From the NCBI GenBank assembly GCA_034667725.1, contig JAXDQS010000010.1, positions 192,001 to 256,000 of the forward strand: a stretch of DNA of 64,000 nucleotides. Reading direction: 5' to 3'. The stretch is from Thermoplasmata archaeon (lineage in GTDB: Archaea; Thermoplasmatota; E2; JACPAO01; JAHFTW01). Made by a program: the position numbers and the translations under genes. The stretch's first letter is position 1. The number at the start of each line of letters is the position of its first letter. Below the pieces are notes generated by a model. That model was not told the DNA's origin. It saw only the letters and a list, made by a program, of their open reading frames with translations, and searched no databases. Shown one piece after another: positions 18,801 through 32,556 of this stretch.

Positions 18801-19380
18801 TCCCCTGGAGTTCTACCAGGCCACCCAGCGCCACGCCGCCGCCAAAGAGGTCGCCAGGAAGATGGGCCTCGTCGAAACGCGCATCGGCAAGCCCGAGCAG
18901 TACGAGCACTGGGGCTTCACCCACGACACCCGCGACATCTCCGAAGGGCCCGCCGCGTCCGCCTACAAGACCTTGGGCTCGATGATGGACAAGATGACGG
19001 CCCAGATGGAGCTCGCCCGCAAGATCCGCGCCGTCGACGAGGCCGAGGTCGGCGCCCGCGTCATCGGCACCCACCTCCTGCCCGACCTGATGGGGAACCT
19101 CAAGGCGTTCAGCCGCCAGAAAATCCGCTGCCCCAAGTGCAACGAGAAGTACCGCCGGATGCCCCTCAAGGGCACCTGCCTCGGCTGCGGCAACGCCAAC
19201 CTGACGCTCACCGTCCACGAAGGGTCGGTGCGCAAGTACCTGCAGATCTCGAAGGAGGTCGCGGTGCGCTACAAGATCGACGCCTACACCCACCAGCGCA
19301 TCCTCCTGCTGGAGCAAAGCGTGGAGTCGCTGTTCCAGAATGACAAGGTCAAGAAGGCCAAGTTGAGCGACTTTTTCTGA
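15889..19380 (+). CDS. polC: DNA polymerase D large subunit DP2 (no intein)
   Basis: AGPIRAAGGTAQA, GGFRLRYGR, GTQLK.ERPGK, catalytic HAAKRRNCDGDED, zinc fingers and C-terminal PIP-like KKAKLSDFF. Confidence 0.98.
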   Translation: MGAEAQQQVVAAPTAPTGPARSPAMQAYFETLHGEAMRCYAIAKQARRKGKDPTTEVEIPPAEDLAARVEAQVGPPGVAQQVRDATARLGNREVVSLFVAQDVAEQMSQRGASKVQALDQAVRTGLSILTEGVLVAPLEGIADVKIGANTDGTDYVDLYFAGPIRAAGGTAQAMSVLIADLVRRRLGIGTYKATDDEVERYKEEIAAYKVEAHLQYNPTPAEIELIARSCPVCINGEGTERSEVSGNRDLPRVETNQLRGGACLVMAEGMILKAPKILKHVEKLKVENWDFLQKLIKKEKAAELAADGIPEIPANAKFMLEILAGRPVFAQPGRVGGFRLRYGRARTAGLASNAFHPATMAVLDDFLAVGTQLKVERPGKGTVATPCDTIEGPTVLLQNGNLLRLSTMAQVKEVRAAIKEIVDVGEILIPFGEFAENNAVLPPSSWCWEWWVQVHQNMTGMAADVHPAGTLTGAQMVRLAEDTQVPLHPDGTLLWHDATAVQMRELGDWLLRHAFWGTPPDDAAGTLANPAASEAEALWIENQPEAKATLVTLLALHTAHGRWLRVEERLAHPLVRGVGLDLADGKVRDTPRRKLLHDPCQPDLTGRFPTVELASRLSGYTVMPRAPFRVGGRMGRPEKADARRMSPPPHGLFPIGQAGGAQRLLRDAADQGVVEVELGSRKCASCGRSEWRTFCGGCGGHTTFHERKQKEGSFTQREMTSLDLRAELERARQSLGLDRLPEKVKAVLGVVNAEKVPEPLEKALLRAKHDVFVFKDGTTRFDMTDVPLTHFRPREVGTPVARLLEMGYTHDLHGAPLERDDQLLELRVQDIVVSESCGDYLLATARFMDELLTRFYGLKPYYNASHRRDMVGHLTIALAPHTSGGVLSRIIGYTRSQCHFGHPYFHAAKRRNCDGDEDGVMLLLDGLVNFSRKYVPDKRGGLMDLPLVLSTRLDPNEVDKEAHNVDTLFRYPLEFYQATQRHAAAKEVARKMGLVETRIGKPEQYEHWGFTHDTRDISEGPAASAYKTLGSMMDKMTAQMELARKIRAVDEAEVGARVIGTHLLPDLMGNLKAFSRQKIRCPKCNEKYRRMPLKGTCLGCGNANLTLTVHEGSVRKYLQISKEVAVRYKIDAYTHQRILLLEQSVESLFQNDKVKKAKLSDFF

Positions 19381-19496
19381 AAGCATCGTTGGTTGGTGGC
19401 TGGCGCGCGACAGCGCAGCCAGCCGCCTGGGGTTCCAAGGGGCGAAGCCCCTGGAAGGGCAAGGTCAAGAAGGCAAAGTTGAGCGACTTCTTCTGA
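19344..19496 (+). repeat. 37-bp direct repeat of the polC 3' end flanking a 79-bp hairpin cassette
   Basis: CAAGGTCAAGAAGGCCAAGTTGAGCGACTTTTTCTGA (19344-19380) vs CAAGGTCAAGAAGGCAAAGTTGAGCGACTTCTTCTGA (19460-19496). The spacer contains GGTGGCTGGC..GCCAGCCGCC and TTCCA-A-GGGGCGAAGCCCC-TGGAA. Confidence 0.92.
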
Positions 19497-19544
19497 GATG
19501 CGCCCAAGAGAACCGCTATAAAGCCGAAGGGGGCTCGACGGCGC

Positions 19545-31045: not shown

Positions 31046-31163
31046 CCCATGCCCGTCTTGGCACGAATCCCGCGGGGGTCCAGGACCCATGGAACCCGTG
31101 CAGCCGCTGGGAGGCGGAGGCGCGGCGGAGGGTCCACGGCACCGAGCTGGGAGGTTTCCTTCG

Positions 31164-32459
31164 TTGGCTGTCAATGACTTGTTTGGCCAGTTGCTCCAGG
31201 TCGAGCCCCTCTTCGTGAACAAGGAGGTCATGCGGGCCTCCTACACGCCCGACGACCTGCCGCACCGGGACACGGAGATCCGCTCGCTCGGCAGCCTGCT
31301 GGTCCCCGCCCTGCGCGGCGAGACCCCGTCGAACGTCTTCATCTACGGCAAGACCGGCACGGGCAAGACCGCCTGCGTCAAGTACGTCGGCAAGGAGCTC
31401 AGCCACAAGGGCGTCGAGCTCGGCAAGCGCGTCAACCTCATCTACATCAACTGCGAGATCGTCGACACCCAGTACCGCGTCCTGCAGAACATCGCCAACG
31501 CCTTCGTCCCCGCAGAGAACTGGAACCACCGCATCCCCTTCACCGGCTGGCCCACGGACGAAGTGTACGAGGCGCTGCGGCGCTACGTCGACGGCTGGAT
31601 GAAGGCCGACGACACCCAATGGGTCCGCGACCCCAGCCGCGTCGGCGGCGAGGTCACCATCATCGTGCTCGACGAGGTGGACAAGCTCAAGGGCGACGAG
31701 GTCCTCTACAACCTCACCCGCATCAACGGCGACCTGGCCCAGAACAAGGTCAGCGTCATCGGCATCTCGAACGACCTCAAGTTCACCGAGTTCCTCGACC
31801 CCCGCGTCAAGTCGTCCCTCGGCGAGGAATCGATGATCTTCGCGCCCTACGACGCCAAGCAGCTCGAGGACATCCTGATGCAGCGCGCCACCATGGCGCT
31901 CAAGCTGAACGTCGTCCAGGACGGCGTCGTGCCCCTGTGCGCCGCCCTGGCCGCCCGCGAGCACGGCGACGCCCGCCGCGCCCTCGACCTCCTCCGCGTC
32001 GCCGCCGAATTGGCCGAGCGCGACCGCGCCCCCAAGGTCACCGACGCCCACGTCCGCATGGCCCAGAACAAGATCGAGCTGGACCGCATCAGCGAGGTCG
32101 TGCGCACCCTGCCCACCCAGAGCAAGCTCGTCCTGCTGGCCACCATCCTCGGCGAGGAGGCCAACCGCGACCAAGGCGTCCACACCCTCACCACCGGCGA
32201 GGTGTTCGACGTCTACAAGGACCTCTGCAAGCACACCGGCAGCGACGTGCTGACCCAGCGCCGCATCACCGACCTCATCAGCGAGCTCGACATGCTCGGC
32301 ATCTTCACGGCCCGCGTCATCTCGAAGGGCCGCTACGGCCGCACCCGCGAGATCCAGATGAGCTGCCCCATCGACAGCACCAAGCGCGTGCTGGAGGAGG
32401 ACGAGCTCATCCGGACGGTCGTGCAGCACAAGCCGAAGAAGCAGCATCGTCTGACTTGA
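31164..32459 (+). CDS. cdc6: Orc1/Cdc6 replication initiator
   Basis: Y.PD.LPHRD, Walker A GKTGTGKT, Walker B LDEVD, LDPRVKSSL, GDARRALDLL and wH domain (ELDMLG...GRYGRTR). TTG start after SD GGAGGT. Confidence 0.97.
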   Translation: MAVNDLFGQLLQVEPLFVNKEVMRASYTPDDLPHRDTEIRSLGSLLVPALRGETPSNVFIYGKTGTGKTACVKYVGKELSHKGVELGKRVNLIYINCEIVDTQYRVLQNIANAFVPAENWNHRIPFTGWPTDEVYEALRRYVDGWMKADDTQWVRDPSRVGGEVTIIVLDEVDKLKGDEVLYNLTRINGDLAQNKVSVIGISNDLKFTEFLDPRVKSSLGEESMIFAPYDAKQLEDILMQRATMALKLNVVQDGVVPLCAALAAREHGDARRALDLLRVAAELAERDRAPKVTDAHVRMAQNKIELDRISEVVRTLPTQSKLVLLATILGEEANRDQGVHTLTTGEVFDVYKDLCKHTGSDVLTQRRITDLISELDMLGIFTARVISKGRYGRTREIQMSCPIDSTKRVLEEDELIRTVVQHKPKKQHRLT

Positions 32460-32556
32460 CCTGGCCGGGGGGCCGCAGGCCTTGCCGCGGGGCGACCCTC
32501 GGGGCGGAGCCCCCGGGTGCAGCACAAGCCGAAGAAGCAGCATCGCATCGTCTGAC
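32421..32556 (+). repeat. Direct repeat of the cdc6 3' end flanking a 61-bp hairpin cassette
   Basis: GTGCAGCACAAGCCGAAGAAGCAGCATCGTCTGAC (32421-32455) vs GTGCAGCACAAGCCGAAGAAGCAGCATCG-CATCG-TCTGAC (32517-32556). The spacer contains GGCCGCAGGCC and GGGGCGGAGCCCC. Confidence 0.92.

Follow-up and report, generated by a model that had tools for sequence, protein, structure and literature searches.

The genome of a soil archaeon of the Thermoplasmata (Thermoplasmatota; GenBank assembly GCA_034667725.1) carries a family of short hairpin cassettes that stand between the working 3' end of a gene and a second copy of that same gene end. Two of them follow polC and cdc6, core replication genes 13 kb apart in a window of 64,000 nucleotides (contig JAXDQS010000010.1, positions 192,001 to 256,000), and we traced the family through the entire genome (G000; 71% GC, 2.3 Mb, 90% complete) and through comparison genomes labelled in the manner of G001 to G025, the last being a class-level relative, all in the form of assembled contigs. 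We favour, with a probability of about 60%, the reading that these are non-autonomous cassettes without open reading frames (ORFs), which act as single-stranded DNA (ssDNA) and would spread by tail replacement, i.e. by exchanging the end of the gene beside which they settle.

The layout consists of a working tail with its stop codon (copy 1), a cassette of 40–270 bp with a GNA-loop hairpin, and a second tail (copy 2). A sequence-only reading of the window had noticed it at polC and cdc6, where coordinates and spacers confirm it, and had suggested looking for further cases, of which G000 holds about 30 among protein genes and 10 among 47 tRNAs. When the ends of all 2091 predicted genes were scanned independently of the hairpin, 27 curated pairs emerged, whose duplicated length of 24–94 bp (median 37) bears out the long, variable duplications proposed from the window; beyond these pairs, atpB, secY, guaA and sdhB are also duplicated. 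At a score of at least 25, there are 17 duplications at gene 3' ends and none at gene 5' ends, to which the identical scan was applied as a mirror control. The 13-mer core of the GNA-loop hairpin occurs 26 times, compared with 1.7 occurrences expected from an order-4 Markov model, and all but one of these sites (25/26) are intergenic; at 14 of the 26, a copy of the upstream sequence lies within a few nucleotides. The strict core is found in 11 of the 27 tail duplications but in only 9 of 2064 other gene ends (Fisher p=2.5e-17), a co-occurrence well beyond chance, and the remaining pairs mostly carry related GNA hairpins.

The targets are diverse. They include genes for a peptidase, GDH, asnS, ftsZ, atpB, secY, aCPSF1, NusA, PolD DP1 and an exonuclease, as well as ten tRNAs, nine of them at the 3' end, several of these split at the T-loop, and one at the 5' end. 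The replisome link that polC and cdc6 had suggested, by way of clamp-binding peptides, arose by coincidence in this window: the duplicated tails show no enrichment of PIP-like ends (2/27 versus 89/2091 of all tails, p=0.32).

The two copies of a tail differ from each other as coding sequences do. The 27 pairs have 71 synonymous and 20 non-synonymous codon differences, where the synonymous share expected is 25% under random change and 40% under duplication and drift of one copy (p=2e-13), and 74 of 100 mismatches fall on codon position 3. Copy 2 has its stop at the same codon in 25 of the 27 pairs, with nine swapped to another stop. Non-silent changes concentrate in the first 10 nt beside the cassette, past which 55 of 66 mismatches are third-position; the tail pairs of relatives have 50 synonymous and 17 non-synonymous differences. 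The excess of silent changes and the kept stops indicate that both copies were coding until recently; local duplication followed by drift is therefore rejected, and with it plain target duplication as the general source, which had been considered from the window alone. Since the copies differ silently and the layout recurs in independent assemblies, an assembly artefact, which the sequence-only reading had allowed for, does not explain it either. The simplest reading of these patterns would be that the two copies stem from different strains or species.

Occupancy is polymorphic among relatives. As the sequence-only reading had anticipated, there are empty sites: most congeners have no cassette at polC or cdc6, while independent lineages do, with cdc6 filled in G001 and G020 and polC in G013. 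Likewise, G002 and G006 have a cassette at atpB, G005 has one at the exonuclease gene and G015 one at asnS. No copies of the polC or cdc6 tails were found further downstream in relatives, up to 20 kb, and long-range tail matches in G000 are mostly paralogues. Units also stack, at atpB, secY and tRNA-Leu. At atpB of G002, a native-type working tail is followed by a tail most like the working tail of G009 and then by another native-type tail; the middle tail scores 41 against that of G009 and at most 31 against others, and the outer two score 49 against each other. This stack is one case, and G009 is the nearest atpB relative of G002 (93%). Successive imports beside the gene, with the oldest resident end outermost, would leave such an order, and the direction of replacement, with copy 1 incoming and copy 2 displaced, is likely rather than proven. 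Genes may lie between the copies as well: in G005, cargo genes, among which no integrase was found, separate a tRNA-Ala end from its repeat, which lies 2.6 kb off beside a family hairpin.

Cassettes have a preferred joint, formed by a GG end of the cassette and a GA-N-(A/T) target in the gene, 10–16 nt beyond the terminal loop. Identity between the copies climbs from background at the foot of the stem to 0.9 by 12 nt, and in 16 of 32 pairs the cassette reads GG where the gene has GA, 10–16 nt past the loop A; shifted positions give a null of 5.7±2.0, and 0 of 2000 shuffles reach 16. To the right of this joint the copies match closely, to its left at close to background level, and none of 80 distal GA sites reads GG. 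The fourth base is A or T in 19 of 21 joints compared with 17% genome-wide, a baseline that codon structure lifts somewhat. The rule was found post hoc in this first set and then scored on held-out genomes, where it is weaker but still positive (5/21 joints, null 1.5, p=0.012); the asnS joint is identical in another genus (G015, held-out). No target motif was found at the stem foot itself; it appears solely at the shifted joint. An enzyme of the HUH type may cut after a short motif near the hairpin, as TnpA-REP does at CT (PMC8266576); alternatively, the hairpin-protected 3' end may prime on the target, its G pairing with C or, by wobble, with T.

Cassettes at unrelated loci are 94–98% identical and contain no ORF, and their GNA hairpins fold on one strand, with 51 on the sense and 6 on the antisense strand against a background of 0.16 and 0.17 per 80 nt, respectively. 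Both properties suit the tiny non-autonomous element with an ssDNA-type hairpin that had been proposed from the window. Because GNA triloops stabilise mini-hairpins of DNA, not of RNA, the working form of the cassette is probably ssDNA. Cassettes of a subclass linked to tRNAs and secY have an internal complement of copy 2 and adopt the fold of a three-way junction. The terminal hairpin itself is far more widespread. The same hairpin stands beside Rep genes of microviruses, inoviruses and CRESS viruses, it is a dispersed repeat in many bacterial phyla, almost always with no tail copy, and in G025 it follows an IS200-like Y1 gene, about 60 nt past the stop. The motif is a generic one of ssDNA ends, and tail replacement is the special feature here. 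A cassette end specific to one lineage did not turn up in viral contigs, the cassettes have no Rfam match at gathering score, and a conserved GTAG guide 5' of the stem was not seen, the stem feet varying between families.

Some side observations concern these hairpins and arrays. The Y1 transposase gene of G025 (L076, G025:C7:531-1013) has TTCA after its downstream hairpin, and a second copy (L077) has no hairpin. The tRNA-Asn and tRNA-Lys cassettes of G000 (C3:159740-160000 and C4:75560-75880) have GNA loops that fold on the antisense strand, and at tRNA-Ser (C2:79285) the 5' end and promoter are duplicated. Behind secY, at least four tail copies form an array in which the cassettes have three-way junctions (G000:C5:1-400 and C8:7330-7850); the assembly breaks inside it, and contigs C5 and C8 are probably adjacent. 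At G000:C2:2330-3700, a GMP synthase glutaminase gene has behind it a complete but divergent second copy of itself, then a hairpin and a repeat of the first gene's tail. At G000:C7:17040-18100, where sdhB converges with a DedA-like gene, each of the two tails occurs twice and they cross at a short microhomology. A glyoxalase-like cargo gene is present there but no GNA cassette, and the site is two intergenic alleles joined out of register.

The two loci of the window illustrate the layout in detail (Table 1). At polC, the sizes first read from the sequence stand, with a repeat of 37 bp, two silent mismatches and a spacer of 79 bp; the spacer holds two hairpins, of which the first is strong (fold z -3.8), and the joint rule is obeyed (gene GA at 19342, cassette GG at 19458). 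The copies of cdc6 are identical over 29 bp and then have one CATCG (5 nt) in copy 1 and two in copy 2, ending in RLT-stop and RIV-stop, respectively, and its spacer is 57 bp from the stop codon, or 61 bp if measured, as in the sequence-only reading, from the shared TCTGA. The strong first hairpin does not extend to cdc6, where it is only a 4-bp stem with a GCA loop (fold z -0.1), and its cassette ends in GG with no matching GA in the gene. The cdc6 orthologues end in V-stop; the downstream copy is therefore ancestral, and the working copy carries a 5-nt slip. A contig from a public sequencing run covers the entire cdc6 cassette with 0 differences, which is weak support as the run is probably of the source sample; at polC, such a contig begins at 19373 and does not bridge copy 1, a break that is uninformative.

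Table 1. Cassette-related features of the 64,000-nucleotide window (positions counted from its first letter)
Feature	Position	Strand	Remarks
polC, DNA polymerase D large subunit DP2, target gene	15889..19380	+	Pfam PF03833/PF24844/PF24846
Target GA dinucleotide of polC	19342..19343	+	context GA-C-A; cassette-terminal GG aligns here in copy 2
polC copy 1, working tail with stop, likely incoming	19344..19380	+	direction suggested by the atpB stack
polC cassette, 79 bp	19381..19459	+	3' 65 nt ~80% identical to cassettes at unrelated genes
First hairpin, polC cassette	19395..19427	+	
Terminal hairpin, GAA triloop, polC cassette	19433..19456	+	core 19439-19451
Cassette-terminal GG, putative joint	19458..19459	+	12 nt past the loop A
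polC copy 2, likely displaced, untranslated tail	19460..19496	+	same peptide, 2 silent differences
cdc6/orc1, target gene	31170..32459	+	start approximate; Pfam PF22703/PF09079
cdc6 copy 1, working tail, derived form	32421..32459	+	lacks one CATCG repeat; ends LT-stop
cdc6 cassette, 57 bp	32460..32516	+	ends in GG; GCA-loop mini-hairpin 32471-32481; terminal GGA-loop hairpin core 32501-32513
cdc6 copy 2, likely displaced tail	32517..32555	+	ends IV-stop; terminal V = orthologue consensus
Third family cassette, behind a stop codon	56903..56942	+	one of 12 family cassettes of the genome that lack a tail copy

Two further observations belong to these loci. In four relatives (L045, L047, L053, L054), polC is interrupted in-frame by ~1.3-1.5 kb, which is consistent with an intein. 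Directly 3' of cdc6 copy 2, a separate palindromic repeat with 9-nt-periodic arms (32558-32618 of the window) resembles the abundant CACGGA/CACAGA-type repeats of the genome, one array of which flanks a GxxExxY gene (PF13366; L320, G000:C5:135449-135900), a candidate partner nuclease.

The sequence-only reading had seen no mobilising enzyme in the window and had named RAYT/TnpA, IS110, reverse transcriptase (RT) and tyrosine recombinase genes as candidates. All were searched. Y1 (PF01797), the RAYT/TnpA family, is present in one of 25 genomes (G025), TnpB (PF07282), RT and IS110 (PF02371) were not found in G000, and REP_ORF2-G2P was found in none of 38 genomes of the order. DUF559 was not found in the genus, its matches elsewhere being weak and in large proteins. 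The only GIY-YIG match in G000 is large and UvrC-like by size and one-per-genome pattern, small GIY-YIG genes of other genera do not lie inside tail pairs, and no GIY-YIG, DUF559 or HNH match lies within a cassette. In two relatives, a GIY-YIG gene of ~200 aa stands between purE and guaA (L286, L313), and in L313 guaA is also tail-duplicated. The sole tyrosine recombinase found in G000 (PF00589; L078, G000:C10:27011-28230) is unlinked to cassettes: it lies on the border of a low-GC island, overlapping a tRNA-Pro gene end. Congeners have up to eight such matches; within 3–9 kb of the relatives' loci no integrase-bearing member was found, and neither cassettes nor the cargo island contain a tyrosine integrase, serine recombinases lying outside the search. 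A mobilising enzyme could come from a virus or plasmid.

Several results weigh against tail replacement by ssDNA cassettes. Y1 genes were found in none of 16 family genomes (65–94% complete), DprA and ComEC, which bear on the route of entry, were not found in G000, and altogether no mobilising enzyme emerged among the searched families in these incomplete genomes. The GA-to-GG change is absent in half of the first set and in three quarters of the held-out joints, many of which read GG in both copies. Only 1–2 of about 120 bacterial hairpin sites have a gene-tail copy, the cdc6 copies are identical apart from the CATCG change, as a local duplication would yield, and the sdhB duplication with its cargo has no GNA hairpin at the joint. 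Host-preferred codons do not separate the copies, with ratios of 41:30 (p=0.24) in the 27 pairs and 31:19 (p=0.12) in relatives, so that copy 1 as the incoming tail rests mainly on the one atpB stack and on the terminal V of cdc6. In the genes of G000 taken together, codon adaptation falls from 0.74 to 0.58 over the final 12 codons, which may be what gene 3' ends show in general or what earlier tail replacement has left behind. Separately, the bacterial sites rule out the hairpin alone as a predictor of duplication.

In the favoured reading, donor DNA made up of an orthologous gene end, its stop and a cassette would enter from another strain or species and be anchored by homologous pairing within the gene. 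Its hairpin-protected 3' end would then be joined 25–90 nt inside the recipient gene end, the incoming tail becoming the working end and the resident tail being pushed behind the cassette. Single-crossover integration of a minicircle of tail and cassette would be an equal route to the same product. Repeated events would add new units next to the gene, and cargo genes may travel along. Such a scheme needs one new joint, and this would explain the silent divergence, the variable length, the decayed proximal zone, the stacking and the cargo. The joining activity may well be host recombination with 3'-end priming, strand transfer in trans by an enzyme of the HUH/Y1 type is a serious candidate as well, and something else would be rather surprising.

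The alternative that survives best, although we consider it unlikely, dispenses with directed import: a REP-like cassette would be copied in by replication template switching, giving an exact tail duplicate, and later homologous recombination would refresh either copy. It accommodates the identical 29 bp at cdc6, the 0–1 differences in several other pairs, the exact tandem units in G006 and the 12 of 26 cassettes without a copy, and a wobble-tolerant GG end suits mispriming. However, refreshing a non-coding copy of 25–50 bp requires crossovers inside it at nearly every locus (25/27 stops are intact), a foreign-type tail stands between two native-type tails at atpB, and the same genes, even the same joint, recur in separate genera.

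Improbable, too, is the proposal that these are attL/attR scars or minimal satellites of integrative elements such as viruses or plasmids, whose attP carries a replacement gene end and whose site-specific integrases act in trans. Elements that target icd or tRNA genes have this geometry (PMC10111431), the 3' ends of nine tRNAs are used here, several of them split at the T-loop, and the arrays, the one cargo island and the up to eight tyrosine recombinase matches of congeners would fit. Yet about 40 unrelated targets share cassette bodies and would need as many integrases, the sole tyrosine recombinase found in G000 sits beside tRNA-Pro with no cassette, no integrase-bearing member lies within the 3–9 kb searched in relatives, and the duplication length varies from 18 to 95 bp.

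Very little speaks for an RNA-based system, either TnpB-like or retro-like in the manner of diversity-generating retroelements (DGRs), in which copy 2 and the hairpins would be a guide or template and copy 1 a recoded, resistant tail. A structured scaffold does stand directly 5' of the target-matching sequence, GRA triloops also cap the hairpins of archaeal DGRs (PMC4372165), and A-to-G is the commonest change beside the joint. Against this, and against the retro-type or RNA-guided mobilisation entertained from the window, TnpB and RT were not found in G000, the changes are not adenine-specific (A>G in just 13/100, distal GA-to-GG in 0/80), identical copies, which exist, would target themselves, and Rfam gives no match at gathering score. 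The triloop, moreover, is a stability motif of DNA and not of RNA. Least credible of all is a host device that stores spare or swappable C-termini, such as clamp-binding peptides, for use by readthrough or recombination. Some pairs do differ in the last one or two residues and the atpB arrays hold different tails, but both polC copies encode one peptide, repeat periods are not kept in frame (12/9/6 modulo 3), PIP-like tails are not enriched, tRNAs are targets too and most congeners lack the cassette.

Tail replacement has parallels in several known systems. In fungal mitochondrial mORFs, which come with a C-terminal duplication in Allomyces atp6 and in Glomus atp6, atp9, cox2 and nad3, the gene is restored by a 3' end of foreign origin, its own end has been shifted downstream and most differences are silent (PMC3630166). 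The atpB stack of G002 and the terminal V of cdc6 agree with this order of a foreign working and a displaced native tail, while the codon-preference test is not significant. However, mORFs carry a LAGLIDADG or GIY-YIG ORF of ~0.5-1 kb, one per site (PMC3630166), whereas the archaeal cassettes are ORF-less, their shared bodies of 40–270 bp serve about 40 targets and their units stack. Integrative elements with a replacement attP (icd prophages, tRNA islands; PMC10111431) share the order of gene end, insert and second end, T-loop targets, additive arrays and occasional cargo; unlike in these, no integrase was found here, there is no fixed target, the duplication varies and the joint is set by its distance from the hairpin. 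The cassettes work like mORFs and replacement-att elements, yet they are members of neither, because there is no enzyme gene and no single target.

Repetitive extragenic palindromes (REP/BIME) with TnpA-REP (RAYT) and the ends of IS200/IS605 are likewise intergenic, strand-specific ssDNA hairpins with a dinucleotide shortly 3' of the hairpin (PMC8266576), and the terminal hairpin of the cassettes also stands behind the IS200-like Y1 gene of G025. They differ in that the cassettes have no conserved GTAG and use GA/GG instead of CT, and in that no Y1 gene was found in the family. To our knowledge, long tail duplications are not part of REP/RAYT or IS200/IS605 systems. One homologous anchor and one novel joint also characterize homology-facilitated illegitimate recombination (HFIR) and the single crossover of recircularised fragments; in an E. 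coli assay, the single-crossover circle route accounted for 56 of 60 clones, in which the homologous segment was duplicated (PMC3240628). HFIR, though, is rare and usually deletes ~1 kb at microhomologies of 3–10 bp (PMC3240628), whereas the outcome here is a short duplication at a hairpin-defined joint. Finally, Ssn nucleases with their NTS/SRM hairpins, as far as covered by the part of the source consulted (PMC11893778), combine an ssDNA hairpin repeat, an enzyme acting a few nucleotides from the stem and a tie to incoming DNA; that part describes no tail duplication, and the sole GIY-YIG match of G000 is UvrC-like. A literature search that left out most subscription journals returned no description of this layout in archaea. 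New here are statistics with controls, a stack that includes a tail type of another species, a case with cargo and the GA/GG joint.

Taken further, and only tentatively, the cassettes might represent a class of ssDNA elements, widespread but so far undescribed, that need no enzyme or are mobilised in trans and that enter almost any conserved gene or tRNA end by means of a hairpin-set GA/GG joint and short homology, so that the C-termini of essential proteins would be continually replaced across species and cargo added without an integrase. The joint rule offers a concrete substrate for finding the enzyme, and a harmless reaction that inserts ssDNA at one end by short homology would interest genome engineers. 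In this one archaeon, the footprint extends to ~1.5% of the protein genes and a fifth of the tRNA genes. If the model holds, stacked tails are an ordered record of past imports, and the cassettes would let species exchange gene ends and gain genes without an integrase, in a way that annotation pipelines miss.

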